The position numbers were made by a program, and so were the translations under genes. The notes under the pieces are model-generated. The model was given only the letters and a program-made list of their open reading frames with translations. It did no database searches and was not told the origin of the DNA. Shown one piece after another: positions 4,224 to 25,276 of a stretch of DNA of 64,000 nt (position 1 is its first letter; each line of letters starts with the position of its first letter). The DNA is from Cyanophyceae cyanobacterium (GTDB taxonomy: Bacteria > Cyanobacteriota > Cyanobacteriia > Cyanobacteriales > JBHJGN01), in assembly GCA_050331735.1 (NCBI GenBank), contig JBHJGN010000057.1, positions 15,432-79,431 of the forward strand, written 5' to 3'.

Positions 4224-4445
4224 GCGCTGTAGGCGCAGGGAAAATAGTTGCTGCGCAACGGGGAAAGGGGAAGCGCCGTAGGCGCAGGGGAAGGGGGAAA
4301 GGGAGGAATTGAATAGTCTTCAATCTCGGCCCGCTATTCTTTATTCGTCGCGGAGCGACTGATTTTCTTTTCCCCCTTCCCCGTCCCGGAGGGACAATTT
4401 CCCCCTTTCCCCATCGCGAAGCGATTTTCCCGTTCCGCAGGAACT
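4224..4445. repeat. Composite intergenic repeat A (G-rich arm, spacer, C-rich arm, seven 13-nt mini-hairpins)
   Basis: Hairpins at 4224, 4247, 4273, 4347, 4383, 4413 and 4432 embedded in GGGAAA and TTTCCC tracts between convergent nadE and ndhH. Confidence 0.85.
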
Positions 4446-4535
4446 ATCAACACTTCCTAACAAAATCGGCTGGAGCTCTTCCTCGATGGGGATGCTGGCC
4501 GCAGCCATTGTCGCTAGGCTACTAATAGCGTCTGA

Positions 4536-5717
4536 TTAGCGATCGACTGACCCCATAATGATGTCAATGCTGCCGAGGATAACGACGATATCAGCTACTT
4601 TGACTCCTTTGAGGAGAGTAGGCAGGATTTGAAGATTGTTGAAATCGGCAGAGCGAATTTTCCAGCGCCAGGGAAAGACAGTATTATTACCGAGGATAAA
4701 GATACCGAGTTCTCCTTTGCCACTCTCGATGCGGACGTAGTGTTCTCCCTGCGGAATTTTAAAAGTGGGAGCAATTTTTTTGCCCAGGAACTGATAGTCA
4801 AACGTATTCCACTCGGATTTGGGATCGTCTAGCCGCTTCGCTTCCAGGTTTTCTGTTGCACCGCCCGGAATCTGGGCGATCGCCTGACGAATAATTTTCA
4901 CCGACTCGCGCATTTCGCCCAGTCGGACTCGATATCTGGCCAGACAATCTCCGGTCGTTTCCCATTGCACCTGCCAATCAAACTCGTCGTAGCACTCGTA
5001 GGAATCTATTTTGCGGAGATCCCACCTGACCCCTGAAGCCCGCAACATGGGGCCAGAAAGACCCCAGTTTAGTGCTTCGGTACGAGAAATTGTCCCAATT
5101 CCTTCCACCCGCCGGCGAAAGATGGGGTTATCGGTAATTAGTCGTTCGTATTCGTTAATTCTCGCCTCAAAGTAGTCGCAGAAGTCGGCGCATTTATCCA
5201 GCCAGCCATAAGGTAAGTCTACCGCGACACCGCCGGGTCGCCAGTAATTGTTATTGACCAGGCGCGATCCGGTGGCTGCTTCCCAGAGATCGTAAATCAT
5301 CTCTCGTTCCCGAAAGATATAGAAGAAAGGAGTGCCTGCTCCCATGTCTAGCATGAATGGACCGAGCCACAGTAAATGATTGGCAATCCGGTTGAGTTCT
5401 AGCATAAGTACGCGGATGTAGCTAGCGCGTTTGGGAACCCGAAGATTAGCGAGTTGTTCTACGGCATTGACTGTCACCGCTTCGTTGAACATTCCGGCGG
5501 CGTAGTCCCAGCGGCTGACGTAGGGAATGTACATAATTGGGGTGCGATTTTCCGCAATTTTCTCCATTCCCCGATGTAGATAACCAATGACGGGTTCGCA
5601 ATCAACCACCTCTTCTCCATCTAGCGTCACGACTAGACGAAAACAGCCGTGCATAGATGGATGATGCGGTCCCATATTGAGAACCATTGGTTCTGTTTTC
5701 GTTTCAATAATTGCCAT
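4536..5717 (-). CDS. ndhH: NAD(P)H-quinone oxidoreductase (NDH-1) subunit H, divergent copy
   Basis: [38 protein letters not shown], and C-terminal [12 protein letters not shown]. Confidence 0.95.
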
Positions 5718-5876
5718 CGTCACCACCTCAATCGATGCTTTTGTCCCAACTAGTATCGAAAGTAGAGGCGCAAGAGTCTTGTCGATTCGTCCGATTTTTG
5801 GATATTCTTCCTACCAATTAATAATCAAGAAACCGTCAGCAACGAGCAAACGGCGAATCTTTACTAGGGAAGCCCT

Positions 5877-6794
5877 CTAACTGTTTTGTTGAAACTCTTT
5901 CGGTGTCACTCCAACTAAACGCTTGAAGTGACGATGCAAATGACTTTGATCGCTAAAACCAACTTCTGTCGCCACCTCAGAAATCGGTAGTTTCTTCAGC
6001 AGCACTTTGGCTCGTTCAATCCGGCAGCGAATGACATACTGGTGAGGTGTTACCCCTGTAGACTGTTTGAAAAGTTGAGAGAAGTAGTGAGGACTGATAC
6101 CAGTGACTGCCGCTAGCTCTCTTAAGCTTAAATCTTGGTCGAGATGAGCATTAATGTAGTCAACGACCTGCCGCAACTTCCCAGCCAATAAACCACCGGA
6201 ATAGGCTGGAAGTTGCGGCATCTGGGCGGAGTAGTGCTGCAACAGATGCACAATCAATGTGCTGGTCAGAGTATCTGCGTAAAGGCGACTTGCGGGACGA
6301 TAATTTGTTAATGCTCCTTTGAGGGCTAATCCAATCTGATGCACTAGCGGATCTGGAGTGGCAAAGTGAGGAACGAGTTCAGCAGAAATCTCAGCCTCGT
6401 CAGCAGATTGAATAAATTTTGCTGTTTCAAAACTGATTAATACAGCGCCTCCAGGGACATTCCATTCAGAGCGATTCCAGGTATGGGCCGGAATTACTAG
6501 GATGTCTCCCTCTGCAACTCTTTCACGCCGAAATTGACCATCGATCGAGCGTTCGGCTTGCGCTGGTGTGGGCAGATCGACCAAGATAGCAATACTGTGC
6601 TGCTTACTGCACACTTCTGGGGTGTATCCCGGCGGTAGGTAGTCGTAGGCAGCATAAATACCGTCCCAGCCGGTAGATAGACTGCTGAGCAGCGGTAGTT
6701 GGGAAAAAATGCGTCGGTATCCCGTTTCTTTCTCCTGAGCAAAGTCAACGGTAACTGATCGGTCTAACATAGCGATCGCGGGACTCTCTGCCAC
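5877..6794 (-). CDS. AraC-family transcriptional regulator
   Basis: C-terminal double HTH (ISPHYFSQLFKQSTGVTPHQYV...VGFSDQSHLHRHFKR). Confidence 0.93.
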   Translation of the reverse strand: MAESPAIAMLDRSVTVDFAQEKETGYRRIFSQLPLLSSLSTGWDGIYAAYDYLPPGYTPEVCSKQHSIAILVDLPTPAQAERSIDGQFRRERVAEGDILVIPAHTWNRSEWNVPGGAVLISFETAKFIQSADEAEISAELVPHFATPDPLVHQIGLALKGALTNYRPASRLYADTLTSTLIVHLLQHYSAQMPQLPAYSGGLLAGKLRQVVDYINAHLDQDLSLRELAAVTGISPHYFSQLFKQSTGVTPHQYVIRCRIERAKVLLKKLPISEVATEVGFSDQSHLHRHFKRLVGVTPKEFQQNS

Positions 6795-6944
6795 TAACCT
6801 ATCATGAACGGCTTGATACAGCCGTTCCGCTTAACGGCTCTTTTTGTTTTAATACTAGATGAAACAAAAGCTGAGTCAAGAGAAATTTACTTGCTGAGGG
6901 CGATCGCTTTTCTACAATAAAACTAGAGTTGGTAGGTTAGGGAT

Positions 6945-9900
6945 ATGGGGCGGATTGTACTGATTGCTGGGTTTGAATCGTTTAATGCCAACCTGTATCG
7001 AACGGGGGCACAGTTGGCAACGTCTCGGTGTCCTGGCTTAGAGGTGCAGGTGTTTAGCGATCGCTCTCTTACCGCCGCACCAGAACGGGTCGAAGCCGCC
7101 CTTCAGGAGGCCCAGGTCTTCTTTGCTAGCTTGGTGTTTGATTACGACCAGGTGGTGTGGCTGCGAGAACGAGTGCAGCATATTCCCATTCGCCTCATTT
7201 TTGAATCTGCCTTGGAATTGATGAGTTTGACGCAGCTTGGGAAGTTCGCCATCGGGGACAAACCGAAAGGGATGCCCAAACCGGTTAAATTCATCCTCAG
7301 CAAATTCTCCAACGGCGCTGAAGAAGACAAACTCGCAGGCTACATTAGCTTCCTGAAAACGGGACCAAAACTGCTGAAGTATATTCCGGCCAAAAAAGTT
7401 CAGGATCTCCGCAACTGGCTGATCATTTACGGCTACTGGAACGCTGGCGGGACAGAGAACTTTGCTGCGATGTGCTGGACCATTGCTGAGAAATACCTGG
7501 GGCTAGACGTTGGCACTATTCCTGCCCCCGTTGAAACCCCCAACATGGGACTGCTGCATCCCGATTACGAAGGCTTTTTTACCTCGCCGCGTCAGTATTT
7601 GGAGTGGTATCAGAGTCATTCAATCGAAATTCAAAATTCACAACCATGTGTTGGTATTCTGCTCTATCGCAAGCATGTGATTACTAAGCAGCCGTATATT
7701 GCTCAACTGATTCGGCATTTTGAAGCGGAGGGGTTGATGCCACTGCCAATCTTTTTGAATGGGGTTGAGGGTCATGTGGCGGTTCGAGACTGGATGACAA
7801 CAGCCCACGAAACCGAACAGCGACAGCAAGGGAATGTTGAAACTCCTTCCCTATCGCCTGATGCTGTCGCCGTGGATGCGATTGTATCAACGATTGGCTT
7901 TCCTCTCGTAGGCGGACCAGCGGGGTCGATGGAGGCGGGGCGACAGGTAGAAGTCGCTAAACGCATCTTAAAAGTGAAAAACGTCCCCTATCTAGTGGCA
8001 GCCCCGCTACTAATTCAAGACCTGCATTCCTGGACCCGGCAAGGAATCGGTGGACTGCAAAGCGTGGTCCTCTATTCCCTGCCGGAACTAGACGGGGCTA
8101 TTGATACAGTTCCTTTGGGTGGGTTAGTGGGTGAAGATATCTACCTGATTCCAGAACGCTTAAAGCGACTGACAGGGAGACTGAAAAGCTGGATGAAGCT
8201 GCGGCAAACGCCTCCGTCTGAGCGAAAAATTGCCGTAATCCTCTACGGGTTTCCGCCTGGGTACGGGGCGACGGGAACCGCTGCGCTGTTGAACGTACCG
8301 CGATCGCTAGTTAATTTCCTAGAAGCCCTCAAGCAGGCAGGCTATACGGTGGGAGAAGTCCCGGATGGGGAAGAACTGATTCAGCGGGTGAAAGAGGCGG
8401 ACGAGGCGACGACCCTAGCAGGACAACCGACGGTTAATGTCAAGACGTTAGAACAGTGGTTGGGTTATCTGCTCACCACTCGCATCGAAAAGCAGTGGCA
8501 AACTCTGACCGGAACGGGGATTAAAACGACTGGCGATCAGTTTCAGGTTGGGGGCGTACAGCTTGGTAACGTGTGGATTGGGGTGCAGCCTCCTTTAGGA
8601 ATTGCTGGCGACCCAATGCGGCTGATGTTTGAACGGGATCTGACCCCCCATCCGCAATACGCCGCGTTTTACCAGTGGCTACAGCACGAATTTTGTGCCG
8701 ATGCTGTGGTTCACTTCGGCATGCACGGAACGGTGGAGTGGCTGCCCGGATCGCCGTTGGGGAACACGGGCTACTCTTGGTCAGATGTTCTGCTGGGAAA
8801 TTTACCGAATTTGTATATCTATGCTGCTAATAACCCCTCGGAGTCAATTTTGGCAAAGCGCCGAGGCTACGGAGTGCTGGTGTCTCACAACGTTCCGCCC
8901 TACAGTCGGGCCGGGTTGTACAAAGAGCTAATGGCGCTGCGAGAGTTAATCAGCGAGTATCGGGAAGATCCCCAGAAGAACACGGCCCTGAGAGACGCAA
9001 TTTGCCAGAAGATCGTTGATACTGGTTTAGCCGCTGATTGTCCCTTTGCTGAAGCCAAAAAATCAGGCATGGCTTTTACAGTGGACAATGCCCGTCTGTT
9101 TAGCAACAATGCCCTCAACAGCTATTTTGTTGAGGTCTATGAGTACTTGCAGGTATTAGAACAGCGGCTATTCTCTTTAGGACTGCATGTATTCGGAGAA
9201 GTCCCTAACGAGGAGGAAATGCATTCATACCTAGAAGCTTATTTTGGGGAATCCTCCAATGGCCCAATCTCCCCCTCTCGCCGAGAAGAAGCGTCCCGGA
9301 TTCGCAATCTGCTTGAGCAAACAACCCAGGAGATTACAAACCTCTTACGGGGACTCAATGGGGAGTATATTCCCCCCGCCCCAGGAGGCGATCTCCTGCG
9401 GGATGGTCCGGGGGTGTTGCCGACAGGACGAAACATTCATGCCTTAGACCCCTATCGGATGCCCTCTCCCGCCGCCACTGCTAGAGGACGGGACATTGCT
9501 CGCAAGCTGATTGCCCAACACCTAGATGAACAGGGGACATACCCGGAAACGGTAGCGGTAATGCTGTGGGGACTAGATGCTATTAAAACGAAAGGCGAGT
9601 CTTTAGGGATTGTGCTGGAACTGGTGGGGGCAGAACCGCTGAAGGAAGGCACTGGAAGAATTGTCCGCTACGAGTTGAAGCCCGTTGCCGAAGTAGGTCA
9701 TCCTCGGATCGACGTGCTAGCTAATCTGTCGGGCATCTTCCGGGATAGCTTCGTCAACGTTATTGAATTGCTAGACGATCTCTTTAGTCGGGCAGCCCAG
9801 GCGGAGGAGTCGGAGGCAGAAAACTTTATTCGCAAGCATGCACTGATGCTCCAGGAGCAAGGAATAGAGAATGCTTCGGCCCGACTGTTTTCTAATCCCG

Positions 9901-10613
9901 CTGGAGATTTTGGCTCCCTAGTCAACGACCAGGTGGTAGACGGCAACTGGGAATCAGAAGCCGAACTCGCTGACACTTGGCAACGCCGCAACGGGTTTAG
10001 CTACGGACGCCAAGATCGAGGACAGGCCCGCCCGGAGGTATTGCAGCAGCTATTGCAGGGGTGCGATCGCATTGTGCAGGAAATTGATTCGGTAGAATAC
10101 GGCCTCACGGATATTCAGGAATACTACGCCAATACCGGAGCGCTCAAGCAGGCGGCTGAACGACAAAGTGGCAAAAAAGTCAATACTTCTTTCGTCGAGA
10201 GTTTTTCTCAGGATACGACTCCCCGCAAGCTAGAAGAGTTGCTGCGCCTAGAGTACCGGACTAAGTTGCTCAATCCAAAATGGGCAGAGGCAATGGCAGA
10301 TCAGGGTTCGGGCGGTGCTTACGAAATTTCTCAGCGGCTGACCGCCCTGATTGGCTGGGGCGGTACGGTTAACTTCAAGGATCGTTGGGTTTACGATCAG
10401 GCGGTAGATACCTATGCCCTCGATCCAAGAATGGCGCAGAAGCTGCAAGCAGCAAATCCAGAAGCGTTTCGCAACATTGTTGGACGCATGCTAGAGGCTC
10501 ACGGGCGCGGCTTTTGGGAGGCAGATTCAGAAAAGTTAGCCAAGCTGCGGGAACTGTATGCTTTAACGGATGAAGAACTCGAAGGTGTTAATGCGAGCGT
10601 CCTTGGTAGTTAG
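6945..10613 (+). CDS. Magnesium chelatase subunit H-like protein (CobN/ChlH/BchH family paralog)
   Basis: GFPLVGGPAG, HFGMHGTVEWLPG, YAANNPSE..AKRRG, LPTGRNIHALDP, SGIFRD, RTKLLNPKW; 1222 aa. Confidence 0.9.
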   Translation: MGRIVLIAGFESFNANLYRTGAQLATSRCPGLEVQVFSDRSLTAAPERVEAALQEAQVFFASLVFDYDQVVWLRERVQHIPIRLIFESALELMSLTQLGKFAIGDKPKGMPKPVKFILSKFSNGAEEDKLAGYISFLKTGPKLLKYIPAKKVQDLRNWLIIYGYWNAGGTENFAAMCWTIAEKYLGLDVGTIPAPVETPNMGLLHPDYEGFFTSPRQYLEWYQSHSIEIQNSQPCVGILLYRKHVITKQPYIAQLIRHFEAEGLMPLPIFLNGVEGHVAVRDWMTTAHETEQRQQGNVETPSLSPDAVAVDAIVSTIGFPLVGGPAGSMEAGRQVEVAKRILKVKNVPYLVAAPLLIQDLHSWTRQGIGGLQSVVLYSLPELDGAIDTVPLGGLVGEDIYLIPERLKRLTGRLKSWMKLRQTPPSERKIAVILYGFPPGYGATGTAALLNVPRSLVNFLEALKQAGYTVGEVPDGEELIQRVKEADEATTLAGQPTVNVKTLEQWLGYLLTTRIEKQWQTLTGTGIKTTGDQFQVGGVQLGNVWIGVQPPLGIAGDPMRLMFERDLTPHPQYAAFYQWLQHEFCADAVVHFGMHGTVEWLPGSPLGNTGYSWSDVLLGNLPNLYIYAANNPSESILAKRRGYGVLVSHNVPPYSRAGLYKELMALRELISEYREDPQKNTALRDAICQKIVDTGLAADCPFAEAKKSGMAFTVDNARLFSNNALNSYFVEVYEYLQVLEQRLFSLGLHVFGEVPNEEEMHSYLEAYFGESSNGPISPSRREEASRIRNLLEQTTQEITNLLRGLNGEYIPPAPGGDLLRDGPGVLPTGRNIHALDPYRMPSPAATARGRDIARKLIAQHLDEQGTYPETVAVMLWGLDAIKTKGESLGIVLELVGAEPLKEGTGRIVRYELKPVAEVGHPRIDVLANLSGIFRDSFVNVIELLDDLFSRAAQAEESEAENFIRKHALMLQEQGIENASARLFSNPAGDFGSLVNDQVVDGNWESEAELADTWQRRNGFSYGRQDRGQARPEVLQQLLQGCDRIVQEIDSVEYGLTDIQEYYANTGALKQAAERQSGKKVNTSFVESFSQDTTPRKLEELLRLEYRTKLLNPKWAEAMADQGSGGAYEISQRLTALIGWGGTVNFKDRWVYDQAVDTYALDPRMAQKLQAANPEAFRNIVGRMLEAHGRGFWEADSEKLAKLRELYALTDEELEGVNASVLGS

Positions 10614-10785
10614 TCCTTTGTCCGAAAACCCATGCTAGTCATTGAGGGCACTCTTGGCGGGGCGGCTCTCCTTCCTATACCCTAAATGAGTAGACTTCCC
10701 CGCCGCTTTGAATGACCGACCGAGGGGGTCGAGCTTGGGTTAGTGGTTTCCCTTGATAGTGACTAATATGAAATAGAAGAAAACA

Positions 10786-10839
10786 TGCTACAGATGCATT
10801 TTCTTTCCCTCTCCTGCCTCTTGACTACCATCTGTAGCA
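10786..10839. terminator. Inverted repeat between convergent genes
   Basis: TGCTACAGATG (10786-10796) pairs with CATCTGTAGCA (10829-10839). Confidence 0.5.
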
Positions 10840-10906
10840 AACATTAAGCAATTTCATATAACCACTAACTCTTGACTCGACGCTCTTAGCAGGGTCTGGT
10901 TCTTGT

Positions 10907-11635
10907 CTACACTTCGTCTCGCTTTCGCTGAGACGCTTTTTTCTTCAACAAGATGCCCAACCCTAAAGCTGTCCCTGTCCCGAGAATCGTCAGAGGCTCA
11001 GGGACCGGTTCCACTCGGTCTCGAGAAGTACCAACTTTGATCTGCGTAGCGAGTTGACTTCTGCCCACTGAATCAAAATCAGATAGAGTGACGTCTCCTG
11101 AGAGCGTAAATTGCTCAGAAAAATCAGAAATAATCGCGTAATTTGCCTGATTACCAACCGCGGTCAGCTCCGCACTGCTGCCGTCCTCATCGGCGAGAAC
11201 AACGTTATCAATAGCCAGATTGGTCAGCGAGATGGAAGATTCCCCCTGAGAGCGATTACGAAGATAAATGATATCCACCGGATCCCTAAAAAAATCGCTG
11301 GTTAAAGTCTGACCACCAAGCACATATTCAACAGTCTCTCCATCATAAGCAACAGTAAAAGGAACGGCTTGACCGCTCGTGTAGACCCGCTGACCTTCCG
11401 CGACGGGAGCTTCGTCAGGAGGCGCGGTGATGCCAAACTCTCTATCTCCGCTATTGCCGTTATTGCCAATACGAGCTTCAGCAACAAACACTGGATTAAA
11501 CTGACCGTTGCTAATGAGCTGGTTGTATTCGTCATCTGTAAGATCTGGCTTTTGAAAACTCGCGGCTATAGCGGTAGCCGGAATTGCTAGGGTTACTAGC
11601 GTTGCCAGAGTTGCTGAAAAAATCTGAATCCTCAT
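10907..11635 (-). CDS. PEP-CTERM sorting-domain surface protein (resembles choice-of-anchor W domain)
   Basis: Signal peptide; FVAEARIGNNG motif; C-terminal VPEPLTILG, TM helix, basic tail KKKASQRKR. Confidence 0.85.
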   Translation of the reverse strand: MRIQIFSATLATLVTLAIPATAIAASFQKPDLTDDEYNQLISNGQFNPVFVAEARIGNNGNSGDREFGITAPPDEAPVAEGQRVYTSGQAVPFTVAYDGETVEYVLGGQTLTSDFFRDPVDIIYLRNRSQGESSISLTNLAIDNVVLADEDGSSAELTAVGNQANYAIISDFSEQFTLSGDVTLSDFDSVGRSQLATQIKVGTSRDRVEPVPEPLTILGTGTALGLGILLKKKASQRKRDEV

Positions 11636-11998
11636 ACCTAAATCAAGCTTCCTCCGGGCTAAGTGGTTCTGATTTGACGTTTCGGCTGCATCATTTTAGC
11701 GAAGATCATATCAGGTATGCTCTCATAAATCAGAGAATAGAGGTCATTTAAGTCACATTTAACCGAATTGACGGCTTTTTTACTTGGGTTACCGAGATCC
11801 TGAAACGACAGTAGTGCGGCATCAGGGGCAAGATAGATTGAGGCTTGAGGCTTCGACTCAAATTGCTGTCGCGAGTCAAACTTTCCCTTGATGCGTCGAG
11901 CCCCGAGATTTTCAATCAGGGAATAGGCCAAAAAAAATAGGCAGGACTATTCCCACCTTTGAATGAGCGATTCGATGTCTCTCAACTGACTGTAGACT

Positions 11999-12520
11999 TT
12001 ACCGACGATGTCCTAGCCACTTACTAGCCACAACTCCCATAATGGCTCCTACTAAGGGGTTACTGAGAAATTTAATCAAGGCTGGCTGATCGGCCATCAC
12101 TTCCTGAAAGATATCGGGATGGCTATGGTAGGCAAAGCTTGCTAGTTTGCTCACGTCATCAGCGTCCATGCGTCTCGCATGATGAGTGGAAAGACCAAGC
12201 TGTTGCTCGAGCTGTTTTTCACTGAGTCCCCTTTCTTTGAGATGCTTAAAAAACTCTCTGGCAACATCATCTCTTTCATTGGGTTTGATTTGAGAAATGG
12301 CCTGACGCAGTTCCGGCTCCATTTGGCTAGTCGGAATTCGCTCTGGATGAAGTGAGCGACCAAACAGGCTTTTGCGTTCGTCGCGCGAGGAGCGCTGGGC
12401 AAAATCATCAAAATTCTCGTATTCTTGCTGAGGATTAGCGGGGGTACTGTCGAGCGACTCCACATTTCCCTGCGCTAGATCCTTCATAATTTCTCGCTTA
12501 TAGCGATCGCTACTGCTCAT
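11999..12520 (-). CDS. Conserved hypothetical protein (csbD-associated cluster)
   Basis: 173-aa ORF with an AAGGAG RBS upstream; co-oriented with csbD. Confidence 0.7.
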   Translation of the reverse strand: MSSSDRYKREIMKDLAQGNVESLDSTPANPQQEYENFDDFAQRSSRDERKSLFGRSLHPERIPTSQMEPELRQAISQIKPNERDDVAREFFKHLKERGLSEKQLEQQLGLSTHHARRMDADDVSKLASFAYHSHPDIFQEVMADQPALIKFLSNPLVGAIMGVVASKWLGHRR

Positions 12521-12570
12521 ATTATCTCCTTACTTTCTTCAATCCTTCTTGGCAGTCGAAGCTTAATCGG

Positions 12571-13005
12571 TTACTGATACTGAATCTGATTCGACTGCTG
12601 ATCGTACTGAGCAGTCAGAATCAATTTTTTATCGGGAGCGTACATTAACACGGTGAGGTCTTGACTGGGAAAGTTGCGATGAAAACCCTGGGCAAGCGAT
12701 CGCGCTAGCGGACGCACTTCGTTAGGCTCAACCTGAGGCGAAATCACCACCCCTAACTTATTGTTGTCCCGCACGTAGGCATCCTGAATCAAACCTTGGC
12801 TCGTCTGCACGACCCAATCTCCAAACTGCTGCCCCTGCGGGGTACTGCCACGCTCAATTTGCGAATACACCTGACCGTTGCTTCCTGGCGGTAGCTGTTC
12901 GATTCGCTGCGCCGTCGGCGCACTCGCACAGGCTGTGGCAATTGTTAACACTAAAGTCAAAGCAATCGCCGATAAAAACCGACGACTCTTACTCATAAAA
13001 TTCAC
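12571..13005 (-). CDS. Hypothetical lipoprotein
   Basis: Signal peptide ending in a lipobox-like IATAC. Confidence 0.7.
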   Translation of the reverse strand: MNFMSKSRRFLSAIALTLVLTIATACASAPTAQRIEQLPPGSNGQVYSQIERGSTPQGQQFGDWVVQTSQGLIQDAYVRDNNKLGVVISPQVEPNEVRPLARSLAQGFHRNFPSQDLTVLMYAPDKKLILTAQYDQQSNQIQYQ

Positions 13006-13068
13006 TTTTGTCCTCTCCCAAGTAGCTGATTAAAATAACTGCTGTTCCGAATATTTTTCCTGAGTAAG

Positions 13069-13094
13069 GGGAGATAGCAGTTTAGCTACCTCCC
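13069..13094. terminator. Stem-loop downstream of csbD
   Basis: GGGAGATAGC-AGTTTA-GCTACCTCCC. Confidence 0.45.
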
Positions 13095-13220
13095 ATTTCA
13101 TTCACTAAACCTTCACCCGGAAAAAGTGCCTCTTTCAAAGGAGCTGAGTCTTACGGACACGCGTTTGCGTTCGCTATCCGGGTGCGGCGTTTAGTAAGCT
13201 AAAAAGTGCCTATTCCAGGT

Positions 13221-13403
13221 CTAGTTGAGCTTTTCTTTGACGCTATCTTTAACATCCTCTTTAGCATGCTGCGCTTGAGCTTCGGTTTGCTTGGCTTGGC
13301 CTTCAGCTTTATCTTCCGGATCGCCTGTTACATTGCTCATCGCCTCTTGCGCTTTTCCTTCAATGTTTTTAGCGGTTGCTTTAGCTCTATCTTCTGTACT
13401 CAT
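13221..13403 (-). CDS. csbD: CsbD-family stress protein
   Basis: KATAKNIEGKAQEAMSNVTGD...KAEGQAKQ pattern; AGGAG RBS. Confidence 0.9.
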   Translation of the reverse strand: MSTEDRAKATAKNIEGKAQEAMSNVTGDPEDKAEGQAKQTEAQAQHAKEDVKDSVKEKLN

Positions 13404-13742
13404 TTATATTTCTCCTGATCTGTAATTCTGAACGTTATTATTCAAGATGAATTTAATAACTTTCTCAGTACAGTTATTAGTGTAGTAAAAACAACCATTC
13501 TTTATTTTCTTCCCAAAGGCATAATTGTTTGTGGATGGTTATTTTAATGACTACTTACTTTGAAAGAGAAGGTTCACCAAGACACTCCTGAGAGCAAGAA
13601 TTATTTGTGCCTCGAAATTTAATATTTCTTTGTAAAAAAATCAAAGCTAAAGAAGATTAAATTCCTCACAGTCAGCGCAAGCTGACATCATCAAAGCCTT
13701 CTCCCTAAAAAGTCGCTCTGGGAATTCGGTTGATCCCCTTCC

Positions 13743-14780
13743 TCAAGAAGTGGCTTTTTTGGCCCGGTTCCAGTTATTGAGGATATCTTTAACTAATAAC
13801 TCTCGTAGCCAAACTTGCAAAACAACCACAATCGGAAGAGCCAAGAATAAGCCGATTAAACCAAAAAACGTAGCAAAAGCGAGCTGAGAAAGTAACGTAA
13901 TGGCCGGTAACAAAGATACCTGTTGCTTCATGACCAGAGGCGTGAGAATATTACTTTCGATCTGCTGAATAGCGATATACAAAACAACCACGGCAAGTGT
14001 CTTCCAGGGAGTAACCGTAAAACCGAGGACCGCAGGGGGAATAACGCTGAGAGTAGGCCCTAGATTAGGAATATAGGTGAGTAACCCGGCCAAAATAGCA
14101 TTAGCAAGAGGAAGAGGCACTCCCAGAAGCCATAAACCAACTCCACTCAAAACGCTAATGACAGTCATATTAAACAAAATGCCAATAAACCAGCCGAAAA
14201 TCGCCTCCTCGCACTGAGAAAGAATTTCATCAATCCGCCGACGATAGAAAGCAGGAAATAGCACAATAAACACGCGGCGATAGCTGGCAGGATTGCTTAA
14301 GAACATGATGGTGACAACCGTCACTAGCAGTAGCTGAAGCAGAACCTGAATGGAGCTTCTAAAAATGTCAAAAACCCGACCAAACCAGCCAGAACCAGAA
14401 GTGGGAAGTTGTTGAAAAATATCTGTGAGGCTCTCAATTTCATTGAGTAATTGACCAGGGAGAAATCGGCGGACTTCGCCATACCACTCCTGTATTTGCT
14501 CGCTGATTCGAGGGAACTGCACGGAAAATTGTTGAAAATTCCCGGCAATAGAGGTAACGACCAGGGCAACCAGACCCGCGAGGATGGCAAGCACCGTCAA
14601 CACCGACAGGGCAACAGCAATTCCTCGCTGAATGTGGTAGTCTTGCAGCTTCTGAACCAAGCGGTTGAGCGCCGTCGCAAACACTACTGCTGTAAACGCC
14701 AGCAGCAACAGATGGTGTATCTGCCATAGGACGTAGAGAGCGATCGCAAACACAATCGAGCCAATAATCTTGCCAACCAC
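13743..14780 (-). CDS. AI-2E family transporter
   Basis: Multi-TM; YIPNLGP and IQQIESNILTPLVM motifs, GLIGLFLALP. Confidence 0.9.
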   Translation of the reverse strand: MVGKIIGSIVFAIALYVLWQIHHLLLLAFTAVVFATALNRLVQKLQDYHIQRGIAVALSVLTVLAILAGLVALVVTSIAGNFQQFSVQFPRISEQIQEWYGEVRRFLPGQLLNEIESLTDIFQQLPTSGSGWFGRVFDIFRSSIQVLLQLLLVTVVTIMFLSNPASYRRVFIVLFPAFYRRRIDEILSQCEEAIFGWFIGILFNMTVISVLSGVGLWLLGVPLPLANAILAGLLTYIPNLGPTLSVIPPAVLGFTVTPWKTLAVVVLYIAIQQIESNILTPLVMKQQVSLLPAITLLSQLAFATFFGLIGLFLALPIVVVLQVWLRELLVKDILNNWNRAKKATS

Positions 14781-14874
14781 AGTTCCTCCTGATTTCGGCC
14801 ATTGACAGCTATTATGCTCATTAGTAACGAAGTTTGATGGGGGTTGCGTCTTCCCTAAGAGTACTCATCGAACG

Positions 14875-16239
14875 CTAAAGCTGCTGGCAGAGTTGCCGAA
14901 AATGCTCGCCGCGATGCTCAAAGCTTTGATACTGGTCGAAGCTAGCGCACGCCGGGGACAGAAGCACAACCGAGGCCTGGTACTGCTGGGCTAGCGGCAG
15001 CGAGCGCTCGATTGCTGCCTCCATCGTCTCGACAATTTCGTACCGTTCGTAGCCAACGAGCTTTAATCGTTGAGCAAAAGTTGGCGCGGCTTCTCCAATC
15101 AGCAGCATGGCTGCGGCTCGCTCCTGAACTGTTTTCAGCCAGCCAGTATCGTCTCCTGTTTTGGCTTGGCCCCCCGCAATGACAATCGCTGGAGCCGTCA
15201 CCGACATTAAACCCACCTGGGCCGCCTCGTAATTGGTCGCCTTACTGTCGTTGATAAACTCTACATCGGCAAGGGTGCGAATCTTTTCCAAGCGATGGGG
15301 AACTCCGGCAAAAGCGGCCACTCCAGAAGCGATCGCCTCGCCATCAATTCCGGCTAACCGCGCCGCCGCCACTGCCAACAACAGATTTTGGAGATTATGG
15401 TCGCCCACCATCTTAAACTCGGTGGTCGGCAGCACTCGTTCGTCAAAAGCAACCACCCAGCCGTCCTCGATATAAATCGTCGGCGATCGCTCTGCGAGGG
15501 CTTTTCCTTTGATGCTCGTCCAGTACACATTCTGCCAATCCGTTGCGGACCTCAAGAACGGATCGTCTCCGTTAAAAACTCGCTGTTGGGAACGACGCAG
15601 CAACGACGCTTTGATGTAATAGTAATTTGCTAATGTTTGATGGCGACTGAGGTGATCGGCAGTAAACGTTGTCCATAGGCCGATTTGAGGAGCTAATGCT
15701 ATCGAAGATTCGATCTGATAGCTGCTAATTTCAGCAATAATCCAGTCTAGAGTTGGCGCTGGAGAGGAAGCAGACTTACTGTTTCGCTGATGCTGAAGAG
15801 CAATTTCGCAGGCCGCATAGCCAATATTGCCGCAGGCCGGAGCCACTAATCCGGCAGTCTTAAAGATAGCGGCGGTCAGCGCCGTTGTGGTGGTTTTCCC
15901 GTTGGTGCCGGTGATCCCAATCCACGGAACCGTCTGGAGATAGCGCCAGGCTAGCTCTAGTTCCCCGATGGTATCAATTCCTCGACTTCTGGCTTCCACT
16001 AAGACGGGAATATCCCAGGGAACGCCAGGACTCACCACAATCAGCTCGGAGGGGTCATCTAAGGTGAAAGTATGACCAAGCTGCACCTGAATGCCCTCTC
16101 CTTCCAGCTCTTGCTTCTGCTGATTCAGCTTTGGAGAGCAAGCGCGATCGCTTAACCTTACTTCCCAACCATCCTGTTTCAACAGCCGCGCAGCGGCGAT
16201 CCCAGATCTTCCCAGTCCAATAATGTCAGCCTTGGGCAT
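14875..16239 (-). CDS. murD: UDP-N-acetylmuramoyl-L-alanine--D-glutamate ligase
   Basis: [42 protein letters not shown]. Confidence 0.96.
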
Positions 16240-16400
16240 ATTTAACGTTGCAATTAATTAACAGCAACACTCATCATAATTAAAAAGGCAAAATTAAAAT
16301 GCCAAAAGTAACTACTAAGCAGTACGAAGTCATCGCAGCATCTGTTTCTGGCAGATAAACTGTAACCGCACACAAGGTTTTTTAATGGTGGCAGAGATGA

Positions 16401-17141
16401 CTACAGCGTTGGAAACTGAGTAATGTCCGCTGCTGCCTGAAGCGTAATTTTCCCCGCGTCTACCTGAAGCTGATGAATTCGTAAAGCCAATCCCTCTTTC
16501 TCAAAGTTACGCAGGTCTAGCATTTTGCTGGCTTTATCAAGAAAAGCGGCTGTCAGTTCTGCTGAGACTTCCTTCCCCGGGACGTATTCAATATTTTCCA
16601 GGAGGACTCCTCGTCCTCCTGGGGCGATTTTTGGGGTCGTTGTAAATGCTACCGTCTGCTGTTCTCCGCTCGGATGCAGCTCCACGACAGCCTCGACCGC
16701 CACGGTCCCATCCTCACGAAGCTGACACGTTTTTTCCGGAACCGTAAACTTCACGCTCCCGTTCTCTAAATAGGTATCTAGAACGCTAATCCGAGTTCTC
16801 AGTTCGGGGGAATTAAAGGCCCGATTAAGATCGTCTTCGGTTAACTCAATGCGAGCGGTTCCTTCCGTCGGCTGAGTCAGTTCAATATTGCCCGTTAACG
16901 CTTTCAGAGGACTAACAGCGATCGCCTGCATGAGGATTTCTAGCACCTGCACCCGCAAGTCGGTTTCGAGCACTAGTCCGGTTCCCAGAATCTCTAGGGC
17001 TTCCAGCTCACCATTCGTGAGCTTCTCTGGATCGGTTTTAACCCGCACGTCCAAACTGTCCGCCTCTTCTAGTTGACTCGATAGAGCAAGTTCGGCAATT
17101 TTGTTGAGGGCTTGTTCTCCAAGATTATCGGTTCCTAACAC
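16401..17141 (-). CDS. DUF2993/LmeA-like protein
   Basis: Cyanobacterial family pattern EQALNKIAELALSSQL...GNIELTQPT...LTEDDLNRAFNS. Confidence 0.7.
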   Translation of the reverse strand: MLGTDNLGEQALNKIAELALSSQLEEADSLDVRVKTDPEKLTNGELEALEILGTGLVLETDLRVQVLEILMQAIAVSPLKALTGNIELTQPTEGTARIELTEDDLNRAFNSPELRTRISVLDTYLENGSVKFTVPEKTCQLREDGTVAVEAVVELHPSGEQQTVAFTTTPKIAPGGRGVLLENIEYVPGKEVSAELTAAFLDKASKMLDLRNFEKEGLALRIHQLQVDAGKITLQAAADITQFPTL

Positions 17142-17230
17142 GCGATCGCTGCTCCCACTAAGACTTTCGTTCTTCTTAATTTTATTAAGAAACGTTAAGC
17201 CATATCTCTGCCAGATGACAGAATCGGGAT

Positions 17231-17470
17231 GTCCCTCCGGGAAAAGGGAAATCGCTGCGCGATGGGGAAAGGGGAAAGGGAAATCTGTCCCTGCGGGACG
17301 GGGAAAGGGAAAATCGCTGCGCGATGGGGAAAAGGGAAACAGTGACCAGTGACCAAACTAACTAGCTGATTTGAACACTGTTAACTAACAACTGTCAAGT
17401 TCTTCCCTTTCCCCTTTCCCCCTTGCCCTTTGCCCGTTGCGGAGCAACTTTCCCCTTCCCCTACGGCGCT
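17231..17470. repeat. Composite intergenic repeat B
   Basis: Hairpins at 17231, 17251, 17287, 17313 and 17436, plus a half hairpin at about 17460-17469, within GGGGAAA and TTTCCCC arms. Confidence 0.85.
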
Positions 17471-18363
17471 TCCTCTTCCCAAGTTCGTAACTGAACGTAG
17501 ACGAGAATCAAGGTGATGCCGAGTAACACGGTTGCCGCTGCGGCGGCATAGCCGAACTCAAAGCGAGAGAAAGCTTCCTGGTAAACATAGTAAACGAGCA
17601 GGTTTGTGGAGTTGAGTGGTCCTCCTCCAGTGATCACATACACTTGCTCAAAGCTGCGTAACGTAAAAATAGCGGTCGTCACTGTGGCAAAAACGAGCGT
17701 TGGTCGCAATCCCGGCAGCGTAATATACCAAAATTTAGCCCCGGCGTTGGCTCCATCGAGTTCAGCCGCTTCGTATCTCGATTGCGGGATGGCCTGGAGT
17801 CCAGCGAGAAAGACGACTAAATTGAAGCCTAACTGCTTCCAGATGCTCAGCAGGATAATCACGGGCATCGACCAAGTGGTGCTGCTTAACCAGGGAATAG
17901 GGTCGAGTCCGGCAGCGAGCAGCAGACCGTTAACAGGACCATCCGTTTGAAACAGCCAGCGAAACCCTAAGCCGACGGCAACTAGAGAAGTAATCGAGGG
18001 AATAAAATAAGCCGTTCGGAGCAATCCCCGCAGGGCTAGAGACTGATTGAGCAGCACTGCTAATCCGAGCGGAATCACCAGACTAGGAATTACGGTAGCA
18101 ATGGTGAAATAAGCCGTATTGCCCATCACCTGCCAAAAGTCAGGATCTGTCACCAGCCGCAGATAGTTGCGCACTCCAATCCAGTGAACGCCCTGGGTGG
18201 TAAAGCTGCCGCTGGTAAAGCTGAGATAAACCAAGTAGGTAATCGGCCCAAGCAAAAACACGCCGAGGAGGAGCAAAGCAGGCGCGAGAAACAGCCAGGC
18301 CGCAAAAGTGTCTCGATCGAGCCAAGACGTGAGATAGTGGGGGGATACGGGCAATTTGTTCAC
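17461..18363 (-). CDS. Carbohydrate ABC transporter permease
   Basis: EAA loop LAGLQAIPQSRYEAAELDGA; ITGGGP; GYAAA. Confidence 0.92.
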   Translation of the reverse strand: MNKLPVSPHYLTSWLDRDTFAAWLFLAPALLLLGVFLLGPITYLVYLSFTSGSFTTQGVHWIGVRNYLRLVTDPDFWQVMGNTAYFTIATVIPSLVIPLGLAVLLNQSLALRGLLRTAYFIPSITSLVAVGLGFRWLFQTDGPVNGLLLAAGLDPIPWLSSTTWSMPVIILLSIWKQLGFNLVVFLAGLQAIPQSRYEAAELDGANAGAKFWYITLPGLRPTLVFATVTTAIFTLRSFEQVYVITGGGPLNSTNLLVYYVYQEAFSRFEFGYAAAAATVLLGITLILVYVQLRTWEEEAP

Positions 18364-18369
18364 GGGCTA

Positions 18370-19029
18370 ATGAGTCAATTCTCTTCCACTGATTCTACCT
18401 CGACGTTGATTTCTCCCTCGCTGAAGCCGCCACTGTCGCTAGAGAACCCTACCAAACTAGGCATTATGGCCTCCGGCAGCGGCAGTAACTTTGAGGCGAT
18501 CGCCCAAGCCATCCAAGACAAGCAGCTCCCTGCTCACATTCAGGTTCTCATTTACAACAACCCAAAGGCCACCGTAAGAGCGCGAGCCCAGCGCTGGCAT
18601 GTGCCCGCCGTTTTGCTCAACCACCGCCAGTTTAAGCGCCGGGAAGACCTAGACCGCTCTATCGTGGACGTATTGCAGCAATATGAAGTGCAGTGGGTCG
18701 TGATGGCAGGCTGGATGCGCGTCGTAACGCCCGTTCTGCTCAAAGCATTTCCCCAGCGCATAATTAACATTCATCCCAGTCTGCTGCCTAGCTTTCGCGG
18801 CGTTCGCGCCGTCGAACAGGCTCTCCAGGCTGGAGTCAAAATTACTGGCTGCACTGCTCACTTCGTTGCTTTAGAGATAGACAGCGGCCAAATTATCATG
18901 CAGGCAGCCGTTCCCGTGTTGGCCAATGATACCGCTGACACTCTCCACGCCCGCATTCAGGTCCAGGAACATCGCATTCTGCCCCAGGCGATCGCTATAG
19001 CCAGTAGTCCCGTTGGGACGGGGAAATAG
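18370..19029 (+). CDS. purN: Phosphoribosylglycinamide formyltransferase
   Basis: Start moved to the ATG at 18370. ASGSGSN, MAGWMR, NIHPSLLP, TGCTAHFV, EHRILP. Confidence 0.95.
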   Translation: MSQFSSTDSTSTLISPSLKPPLSLENPTKLGIMASGSGSNFEAIAQAIQDKQLPAHIQVLIYNNPKATVRARAQRWHVPAVLLNHRQFKRREDLDRSIVDVLQQYEVQWVVMAGWMRVVTPVLLKAFPQRIINIHPSLLPSFRGVRAVEQALQAGVKITGCTAHFVALEIDSGQIIMQAAVPVLANDTADTLHARIQVQEHRILPQAIAIASSPVGTGK

Positions 19030-19170
19030 TTCCTGCGGAACGGGCAAAGGGCAAAGGGAAAGGGAGTAGTTGTCAAGTGGGTTCCTTGCTCCTGTATTCT
19101 TCTCCCGTCCCGGAGGGACAGATTTCCCTTTCCCCTTTCCCCCTTCCCCTTTTCCCCGCGCCGCAGGAGC
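19007..19170. repeat. Composite intergenic repeat C
   Basis: Hairpins at 19007, 19029, 19107 and 19158 with GGGCAAA and CCCTTT arms between convergent purN and the M16 gene. Confidence 0.85.
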
Positions 19171-23314: not shown

Positions 23315-23459
23315 CAAATTGAAACCGGGGAAAGGGCAAGGGGGAAATAACGAGTTGTCTGCCAAAACTTTTACCGTTGCCGCAGGAAAAGCGGAGGATG
23401 AAAGCCCTGATGGGAGAGATTTAATCTGACATATCATTCCGCACTCCACCGAATTTTCC

Positions 23460-24983: not shown

Positions 24984-25276
24984 ACAACAGTGCTTTCTAG
25001 TATTAGTGATAGCGTTGCTTAATAGCTAACGACCAGAGTGGAGCGGAGCTAGTCGTTTACAGTCAATCGTCAATTCTAAACTGGTTTAGTCAAGGCTGCC
25101 GTTACACAATCAGCAAGACCTCAATTGTCTCAACTTAAAACTTGCCGTTCACCTCTTCTATTTCCCCGTCCCAGAGGGATGTTCCCCCAATCCGAGATTT
25201 TATTGGTATGATCTAATTATGACGACACCTAATCTCAAGGAGCCGTCACGTTTATGCTAGGGCTTAGCAAAGTTGC

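Follow-up and report, generated by a model that had tools for sequence, protein, structure and literature searches.

Three intergenic elements, here called E1, E2 and E3, lie in a 64,000-nucleotide stretch of the genome of a Cyanophyceae cyanobacterium (G000:C57:15432-79431), which we refer to as the window; the genome assembly comprises 5.57 Mb in 99 contigs and has 49.5% G+C. The elements are built of heptamer tracts and of very small hairpins, 13 nt long, with a 5-bp stem and a 3-nt loop that is often GNA. These hairpins had been noticed earlier from the DNA letters of the window (the original prediction). They are not free-standing, but parts of a larger composite element in which, read on either strand, a purine arm is followed by a polar core of about 27-30 nt and then by a pyrimidine arm. 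In this genome, the stems are kept as perfect hairpins while the loops and flanks drift.

Two classes of hairpins are distinguished. Class A hairpins have GTYSC or ATCGC stems, are located on the pyrimidine-rich strand and occur in the context ...TTTCCCCTTTCCCC-[hairpin, GNA]-T(t)tTTCCCC. Class B hairpins have GCGCC or GCAGC stems and the context (G)AA-[hairpin]-(A/G)GGGAAAAGGGG; they often lie at the outer end of an arm and carry GNA, when present, on the purine-rich strand. The features of the window are as follows.

4224..4445, unstranded: element E1, with purine arm 4224-4307, center 4308-4346 and pyrimidine arm 4347-4445
4224..4236, plus strand: E1, terminal class B (GCGCC-type) hairpin GCGCT-GTA-GGCGC, closed by a T.G pair
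4247..4259, minus strand: E1, hairpin GTTGC-GCA-GCAAC, with GNA on the minus strand
4273..4285, plus strand: E1, class B hairpin GCGCC-GTA-GGCGC, with GNA on the purine-rich strand
4347..4444, plus strand: E1, four class A hairpins, GTCGC-GGA at 4347, GTCCC-GGA at 4383, ATCGC-GAA at 4413 and GTTCC-GCA at 4432
17231..17476, unstranded: element E2, with purine arm 17231-17339, long variant center 17340-17399 and pyrimidine arm 17400-17476
17231: E2, hairpin copy with four pairs
17251..17325, minus strand: E2, three class A hairpins, ATCGC-GCA at 17251, GTCCC-GCA at 17287 and ATCGC-GCA at 17313, with GNA on the minus strand
17436..17448, plus strand: E2, hairpin GTTGC-GGA-GCAAC
19007..19170, unstranded: element E3, with purine arm 19007-19065, canonical core 19066-19096 and pyrimidine arm 19097-19170
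19007..19041, minus strand: E3, GTCCC-GTT-GGGAC (non-GNA loop) at 19007 and, on the minus strand, GTTCC-GCA-GGAAC at 19029
19107..19170, plus strand: E3, GTCCC-GGA-GGGAC at 19107, 10 nt past the core, and terminal four-pair hairpin GCGCC-GCA-GGAGC at 19158
23327..23385, unstranded: degenerate trace, the G-tract GGGGAAAGGGCAAGGGGGAAA and a decayed hairpin
25160..25190, plus strand: solitary decayed module TATTTCCCC-GTCCC-AGA-GGGAT-GTTCCCCC

All 12 hairpins for which the original prediction gave a sequence were located by script at the coordinate claimed, with an offset of 0. Both of its declared exceptions, the T.G closing pair at 4224 and the GTT loop at 19007, were right, and its estimate of about 16 hairpins in the three elements agrees with our count of about 16-17, which includes the copies with four of five pairs at 17231 and 19158. 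The degenerate traces that it placed near 23320-23390 and 25160-25180 are both real.

Each of the three elements adjoins or overlaps the end of a gene. E1 starts 0 nt from the stop codon (TAA, 4221-4223) of a NadE-like gene and ends 91 nt from the stop (4536) of an NdhH-like gene; its four class A hairpins are separated by TTTCCCC-type tracts. In E2, the stop codon of an ABC-permease gene (17461-17463, minus strand) lies inside a degenerate remnant of a terminal GCGCC-GTA hairpin (17460-17469), and the next gene starts 90 nt away, at 17141. E3 completely fills the space that separates a PurN-like gene from an M16 peptidase gene (stop 19171-19173), and its first module supplies the last codons and the TAG stop (19027-19029) of the PurN-like gene. 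The E3 core ends with ...GGTTCCTTGCTCCTGTA, which is followed by TTCTTCTCCC. Two further observations concern these sites. The PurN-like open reading frame (ORF) extends 11 residues beyond its Pfam domain (18994-19029 in the window), and the E2 center opens with two tandem CAGTGAC heptamers (17340-17353), a second unit that resembles the short tandemly repeated repetitive (STRR) sequences of cyanobacteria and differs from GGGGAAA.

The genome contains 6477 perfect hairpins with a 5-bp stem and a 3-nt loop. When these are sorted by closing pair plus loop, C-GNA-G and its complement account for all of the six commonest classes (GGA 121+129, GCA 107+88, GAA 58+55), and the best other class has 54 members. 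The C-GNA-G hairpins number 637, compared with a mean of 174 (85.0 + 89.1) in eight order-3 Markov simulations, so that the genome-wide excess over a simulated background anticipated by the original prediction is present. We also used the pyrimidine flank [CT]4TTYCCC as the only anchor and scored the next 13-mer for pairs. The 3437 13-mers obtained have a bimodal distribution, with 336, 95, 148, 549, 1134 and 1175 of them having 5, 4, 3, 2, 1 and 0 pairs, respectively. Among the 336 perfect hairpins, 223 have a GNA loop and 331 a C-G closing pair. The stem set is small: the 637 hairpins include GTCCC (101), GTCGC (79), GTTGC (76), GCGCC (75), GTTCC (59), GCAGC (24) and ATCGC (18), and the hairpin consensus is GTYSC-GNA-GSRAC.

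Clustering of tracts and hairpins yielded 283 loci. Their median length is 126 nt and their total 36,427 nt, which is 0.65% of the genome; 480 of the 637 GNA hairpins fall within them. The arms follow each other in the order purine to pyrimidine, which reads the same on both strands, 96 times and in the reverse order 16 times, and the corresponding junctions within clusters number 167 and 16. The purine arm contains GGGGAAA-type tracts and mostly GCGCC and GTTGC hairpins, and the pyrimidine arm contains TTTCCCC tracts and mostly GTCCC, GTCGC and GTTCC hairpins, with GNA loops on that strand. Centers of at least 25 nt are largely related to each other, as 102 of 132 fall into a single BLAST component. 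The core consensus, derived from 40 aligned short centers, is T.AAT.AGCTTGTTCCTTAG..CTGTG, and a hidden Markov model of the core identified 75 sites at E<=1 (nhmmer). The first hairpin past ...CTGTG-TTCTTTCCCC, on the C side of the core, is GTCCC (20), GTCGC (15) or GTTCC (10), whereas that on the G side is GCGCC (26) or GTTGC (16). The core gives the element polarity. In the window, this grammar is obeyed by E1; E3 has a canonical core but class A stems in both arms, and E2 has a long variant center.

Spacings between neighboring hairpins of the same orientation peak at 22 (10), 29 (27) and 36 (15) nt, and they equal 15+7n in 54 of 98 cases, where 14 are expected. These values indicate that the repeating unit is a 15-nt cassette, i.e., the 13-nt hairpin plus 2 nt, phased into TTTCCCC heptamers. 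The genome also has 4852 copies of GCGATCGC, and stems such as ATCGC...GCGAT are built from halves of this sequence, which is the cyanobacterial palindrome HIP1 (PMC4390886).

Maintenance of the stems is evident from several analyses. Matches to GTYSCGNAGSRAC are paired at both variable positions in 315 of 347 cases, when about 25% would be expected from column frequencies. In a covariation test, in which the search used only the flank and C-GNA-G and left the outer four stem pairs free, all four outer pairs were Watson-Crick at 220 of 272 sites, versus 46.6 +/- 6.1 (maximum 66) in 1000 shuffles. Every outer pair is represented by two or three Watson-Crick types, e.g., CG 127, TA 101 and GC 19 for pair 3, and CG 136 and GC 114 for pair 4. 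We also compared homologous elements in 118 unique best-partner alignments. Differences were found at 6.8% of stem sites (123/1817), 27.7% of loop sites (145/523) and 16.0% of other sites (2005/12,523); relative to their surroundings, stems change 0.4x and loops 1.7x as much. The partner stem for 168 query hairpins was identical in 95 cases, altered but perfect in 25, altered and broken in 8 and gapped in 40. Thus, 25 of 33 ungapped hairpins with altered stems are still perfect and 8 are broken; the query hairpins were preselected as perfect, and the state of the partner is unbiased in this count. Some of these stem changes may be exchanges between existing stem types rather than point mutations.

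The proposal of a structure-selected modular repeat is therefore supported by the pairing at variable positions, by the shuffles and by the alignments of homologous copies. The accompanying statement that the family is conserved in structure but not in sequence holds for stem pairing, but it was overstated, as 8 of the 13 positions are near-invariant and few stems are used.

The GNA rule is likewise valid for a part of the family. Class A loops have G at position 1 in 211 of 243 cases (87%) and A at position 3 in 221 of 243 (91%), with a free middle base, but the loops of the GCGCC class are hypervariable. The 135 perfect class B hairpins (46 others have one mismatch and 50 have two) carry scattered loops, including GCA (31), ACA (15), GTC (12), TGC (12) and GTA (10). 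According to PMC13037366, only GNA of the 64 triloops makes an extra-stable DNA mini-hairpin, with melting temperatures (Tm) in the order A 76 > G 73 > C 71 > T 70 C for the middle base, and the RNA form is far weaker than the DNA form. The loop frequencies in this genome, GGA 192 > GCA 68 > GAA 30 > GTA 25, have a different order. This order, the non-GNA loops found in 75 of 390 perfect GTYSC hairpins and the scatter in class B are three counts against a simple story in which GNA is selected. The nearest-neighbor DNA model assigns equal energies to GNA and TNC loops and is uninformative on the GNA advantage.

Evidence on how the elements grow and disperse comes from comparisons of copies. Adjacent hairpins within an arm match each other exactly in 21 of 149 pairs, compared with 5.0 +/- 2.1 in shuffles (maximum 13 in 2000), and the identical pairs include rare variants such as GTCCC-AGA and GTCCC-GCC, which implies that local tandem duplication contributes to the growth of arrays. 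Dispersal of whole elements is also seen: a copy of E1 that is 90-93% identical, with unrelated flanks and ragged ends, is located on another contig (G000:C18:23113-23310). Of the elements of at least 100 nt, 138 of 183 could be aligned with a partner over a length of 100 nt or more, with a median identity of 79%. The best-partner identity reaches 90% in 6 of the 138 and 95% in none, and judging by these values the family is not young.

The arms of an element are complementary in composition, not in sequence, and homologous copies end raggedly. We found no defined terminal inverted repeats, target-site duplication or parent insertion sequence (IS), with an IS having matching ends sought at the loci of Y1 transposase genes only. 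A putative target or duplication signal at element ends was rejected, as the T-rich bases past terminal hairpins are the TT spacer of the module itself.

The family also has a characteristic genomic position. With gene calls made by a crude longest-ORF method (4078 ORFs covering 81% of the genome), 251 of the 283 clusters lie outside ORFs. Clusters occur in tandem gaps (152), convergent gaps (69) and divergent gaps (27), inside ORFs (32) and at contig edges (3). Since the genome has 2507 tandem, 738 convergent and 734 divergent gaps, simple arithmetic gives an enrichment of about 1.5-fold in convergent gaps and about 0.6-fold in divergent gaps. In tandem gaps, the median distance from the element to the upstream stop codon is 13 or 4 nt, and that to the next start is 54 or 115 nt. 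In 51 convergent gaps, the residual sequences on the two sides of the element are 9 and 9 nt, and the total gap is 188 nt, versus a median of 108 nt for gaps without elements. The elements are thus located directly after stop codons and avoid divergent, i.e., promoter-containing, gaps. Their orientation is not related to gene direction: core polarity was split 15 vs 13 in '++' gaps and 8 vs 9 in '--' gaps, and the orientation of single arms was split 12 vs 12. Transcription-coupled polarity was rejected on these grounds.

RNA folding predicted one long imperfect hairpin for each of E1, E2 and E3 on both strands, with energies from -73 to -118 kcal/mol (-104 to -107 kcal/mol for E2 and -73 to -79 kcal/mol for E3). 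In these folds, G-tracts pair with C/U-tracts and the mini-hairpins protrude as branches. As single-stranded DNA (ssDNA), E1 has a predicted energy of -64.8 kcal/mol (z -7.5), and 0 of 200 shuffles were as good.

The descriptive picture, i.e., a lineage-restricted mosaic with polarity, heptamer phasing, maintained stems and proximity to stop codons, is well supported. With regard to its meaning, we favor, with moderate confidence, the view that the family is an old, now slow-evolving, non-autonomous repeat, related by analogy to both repetitive extragenic palindrome (REP)/BIME repeats and STRR/small dispersed repeat (SDR) sequences, which most likely acts as a 3'-end structure independent of orientation, or is tolerated because it acts in this way. 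Due to arms of complementary composition, every transcript or single strand would fold into one long hairpin with mini-hairpins as side branches, and the element would terminate transcription in both directions and/or block 3' exonucleases. This role is suggested because the element is nearly the sole sequence in convergent gaps and its arms can be folded into a long hairpin. The agent that made and spread the cassettes is not a detectable RAYT. A search of the genome, whose completeness by markers is 99.98%, revealed no Rho RNA-binding domain. Roles in transcription termination and mRNA stabilization have been proposed for REPs and for miniature inverted-repeat transposable elements (MITEs), as discussed in PMC3733652. 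A loose terminator pattern, a hairpin plus a T-rich tail, is matched by single class A modules of E1 and E2 (4347+, 4259-, 17263- and 17325-); the region has 24 sites of this pattern and shuffled sequences have 20.5 +/- 4.8, i.e., there is no excess.

Several points weigh against this 3'-end role. The arms lack a classical U-run end, and their T runs are 3-4 nt long and located inside the long stem. The GNA advantage is specific to DNA and weaker in RNA, which argues that selection on class A loops acts on DNA. Independence of orientation is as compatible with a functionless insertion as with a symmetric hairpin, and the proximity of elements to stop codons might result simply from their removal from promoters and coding DNA, or from a preferred target. 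In addition, the arm grammar is statistical, with E2 and E3 departing from it, and the gene calls are crude.

The best surviving alternative, which we consider possible but on balance unlikely, is that the family has no host function and is a selfish or neutral product of heptamer slippage and cassettes, whose stems are kept by a mechanism such as intrastrand template switching, quasipalindrome correction or gene conversion between modules rather than by selection. The expansion of arrays by tandem duplication, the heptamer-quantized spacing, the reuse of a small stem set and the random orientation relative to genes are all consistent with it. Loops that change faster than flanks, and reverse-complement loop pairs such as GCA (31) and TGC (12), are what inversion of palindrome loops would give, and exchange of modules could produce altered stems that mostly switch among existing types. 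Correction of stems alone is, however, insufficient to explain why class A loops keep G and A around a free middle base. Moreover, the elements replace the normal spacer, as the short residuals in convergent gaps illustrate, and they are still found at 283 loci next to housekeeping genes, although they have diverged by about 21%.

A relic of transposition is a second alternative. The original prediction suggested that an HUH/RAYT-like enzyme encoded elsewhere may recognize or spread the repeat; in a revised form, the elements would be of the REPIN type, moved by an ssDNA-hairpin-recognizing RAYT/HUH enzyme whose gene was lost or not assembled, and the present copies would be decaying relics. 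The inverted two-arm hairpins are REPIN-like, the family looks old and inactive, with no pair of copies reaching 95% identity, and the GNA advantage is specific to ssDNA (PMC13037366). The genome searches do not support such an enzyme in this organism. No RAYT gene was found with model NF047646 (best score 24.7 bits vs a cut-off of 80). There are eight Y1_Tnp matches, and all six that were tested are IS200/IS605 TnpA; five of the eight adjoin ORFs of about 380-460 aa, whose size fits TnpB, for which they are candidates. Enrichment of elements near Y1 genes, another expectation of the original prediction, was not observed, as two of the eight have an element within 3 kb, a range that covers 24% of the genome. 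The GTAG/CGTC tag was not found beside the stems, which are flanked by ...TTTCCCC-[hairpin]-T(t)tTTCCCC (class A) and (G)AA-[hairpin]-(A/G)GGGAAAA (class B). The remaining two of the eight TnpA matches contain an in-frame stop codon, TAG and TGA (G000:C37:74716-75069 and G000:C15:47718-48071).

Further evidence for a RAYT relic came from other genomes. A two-module pattern, which has 51 matches in the source genome, was searched in 185,579 species (one genome each, with the source genome left out) and gave at least 80 loci. Among the matches listed, none is titled cyanobacterium, 29 loci belong to one metagenome-assembled genome (MAG) labeled Candidatus Kuenenia stuttgartiensis, and several come from Pirellula and Roseimaritima MAGs. 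In these Planctomycetota, GTTGC-GGA-GCAAC, GTCGC-GGA-GCGAC and GTCCC-GAA-GGGAC are the tips of tandem, partly GTAG-tagged REP-like units. The loci are L010, L023, L067, L071 and L188 (Ca. Kuenenia stuttgartiensis MAG), L029 and L186 (Pirellula sp. MAG) and L036 (Roseimaritima MAG). Two planctomycete genomes show enrichment of the 13-mer pattern (278 vs 18 in the control, and 211 vs 46), and in L186 and L188 the identical 13-mers lie on both sides of RAYT-like ORFs (224 and 278 aa) that have an HUH motif and give sub-threshold matches to the RAYT model (E 1e-11 to 5e-15). These proteins had a best tblastn E of 0.12 in the source genome, and the completeness of the latter also counts against a relic. 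The planctomycete genomes were picked from the 185,579 species by this very pattern, and the resemblance may be convergence on a favored hairpin tip. Taken with the searches above, we regard the relic explanation as unlikely. The enzyme idea was a fair analogy that fails on RAYT membership in this genome, and the planctomycete 13-mers beside RAYT-like genes make it a reasonable lead.

A bolder reading seems to us unlikely. The 15-nt cassette could be a transposase-independent or non-RAYT mobile element of very small size that enters CCCC|TTT junctions of heptamer tracts; the arms, with hairpins set in G-tracts, could form quadruplex-duplex and i-motif hybrids and a long palindrome, and a cyanobacterium without Rho could have adopted them as orientation-independent gene-end signals. 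The object of selection would then be a shape of DNA or RNA, preserved by compensatory changes, instead of a sequence to which a protein binds.

Finally, the elements might work as non-B DNA, with arms that form G-quadruplexes (G4) and i-motifs and hold the mini-hairpins as structured loops, or with the whole element extruded as a cruciform, having a role in replication priming, exclusion of single-strand-binding protein, absorption of supercoils or recombination, but not through RNA. DNA-level readings of this kind stay alive because the GNA advantage is DNA-specific. The elements, 0.65% of the genome, contain 195 of its 477 canonical G4 motifs (loops 1-7), and an orientation-independent function is expected under this reading, as observed. 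Published work points in the same direction: a (GGGGAAA)-type oligonucleotide forms a quadruplex with a Tm of about 76-86 C, above that of its duplex, in PMC12678523; in PMC4692102, the G-rich heptamer repeats found in Nostoc adopt G4 structures in vitro; and PMC13037366 places GNA mini-hairpins at ssDNA phage origins and N4 promoters. We nevertheless consider this alternative very unlikely, as G4, i-motif and cruciform are putative structures in vivo, the complementary arm competes for pairing in a very stable long-hairpin fold, and proximity to stop codons is not predicted.

The family is restricted to one lineage in the genomes searched. Pattern CCCGTYSCGNAGSRAC has 307 matches in its own genome (control 1), and in 400 genomes of the same order it occurred at most twice per genome, no more than the reversed control; an exact 20-mer was found in 0 of 40 relatives. 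The family to which the source genome belongs has no other species in the genome set. In metagenomes, 76 loci with orthologues of the neighboring CobN/ChlH-like gene, 70-82% identical, had 0 modules in 1.07 Mb and no synteny with the genes of the window.

A catalogued repeat that fully matches the family was sought in several resources. Rfam gave sub-threshold matches only (MIR2118, 25-30 bits vs a cut-off of 85), plasmid BLAST gave no match, and a full-text literature search with exact repeat strings found no microbial repeat paper; SDR1-8 were compared by description only. These searches thus gave no catalogued match. The MIR2118 identity was rejected as an artefact of the long hairpin. Another weak sub-threshold Rfam match, to Transposase-1 RNA (24.1 bits vs a cut-off of 42.8), lies at 8473-8511 on the minus strand, inside the CobN/ChlH-like gene, and is probably due to chance.

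The elements also bear on the assembly. Among the sequencing runs listed, one DNA run contains this sequence and may be the source sample, two more belong to the same study, and none with this DNA is recorded as RNA. Short-read contigs from the only run that contains this DNA break at them (ends at 4204, 4378, 17278 and 19121). Short-read depth at the elements is 560-777, compared with about 50, and is inflated by other copies; the contig joints are other family members. The repeat family is probably a cause of the fragmentation into 99 contigs.

By analogy, the repeat is a lineage-specific variant of known intergenic repeats of the REP/BIME and STRR/SDR kinds. STRR heptamer repeats of cyanobacteria were reportedly described by Mazel and coworkers in 1990, and SDRs are described as being embedded in tandem heptamers and sharing a hairpin fold. 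To our knowledge, the source organism is outside the groups for which STRRs have been described. The present family resembles STRRs and the Nostoc GGGGA(C/T)T repeats in having intergenic tandem G-rich/C-rich heptamers with quadruplex potential, but its unit is GGGGAAA/TTTCCCC, in runs of 1-3 units interrupted in phase by cassettes. The Nostoc repeats are those treated in PMC4692102. Like the SDRs of Nostoc punctiforme (Elhai et al. 2008, Genome Res 18:1484), it includes very small repeats proposed to be mobile; one of these, SDR5, is 21 nt long and inserts precisely inside HIP1 (as given in PMC4390886 and PMC13756078). Unlike them, the cassette described here is 15 nt long and part of a larger element with a core and two arms, in another lineage, a distinction drawn from descriptions only.

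Similarities to REP, BIME and REPIN (Bertels & Rainey 2011, PMC3116915; Di Nocera et al. 2013, PMC3733652) include hundreds of short extragenic palindromes with complementary stem changes within the family. As in BIMEs, palindromes of alternating orientation and conserved linkers form a mosaic at gene ends that is predicted to fold into long ssDNA/mRNA hairpins, and, as in REPINs, inverted doublets fold to a single hairpin, in accordance with the arm order and the folds of both strands. The 5-bp stem is at the low end of the 5-13 bp given for REP stems in PMC3733652. In contrast to REPs and REPINs, the hairpins described here are embedded in heptamer tracts around a polar 27-30 nt core, without the GTAG/CGTC tag and without a detected RAYT, and the stem and linker sequences, of a different lineage-specific kind, would set the family apart from PU/REP Y and Z; no sequence homology to catalogued families was seen, with no search aimed at it. 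Bacterial MITEs such as Nezha, ERIC, RUP and NEMIS (in the account of PMC3733652) are similarly non-coding, 100-250 nt long, located beside coding sequences and able to form robust hairpins; the elements described here differ in their ragged ends, where modules are gained and lost, and in that no terminal inverted repeats, target-site duplication or parent IS were found. The C-GNA-G triloops, with conserved G and A and a free middle base, recall the d(GCGNAGC) mini-hairpin DNA of Kimoto & Hirao (2026; PMC13037366). That, however, is a biophysical motif and not a repeat family. In the present family, the most stable loop, GAA, is outnumbered by GGA, the most frequent one, and class B does not follow the rule.

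This family is an unusually clean natural case of non-coding DNA held as hairpins, in which three of four altered stems stay paired. GNA mini-hairpin DNA, G4-prone heptamers and REP/BIME-like mosaics, which are usually studied apart, are united here in one element that follows stop codons in an organism without Rho. The planctomycete 13-mers beside RAYT-like genes raise the question of whether tips of this type are an optimum, reached by convergence, for enzymes working on hairpins in ssDNA. Should the elements terminate or protect transcripts, they would provide compact, bidirectional insulator parts for cyanobacterial engineering; if they are not 3'-end structures, they would offer a test bed for the maintenance of palindromes without a RAYT.

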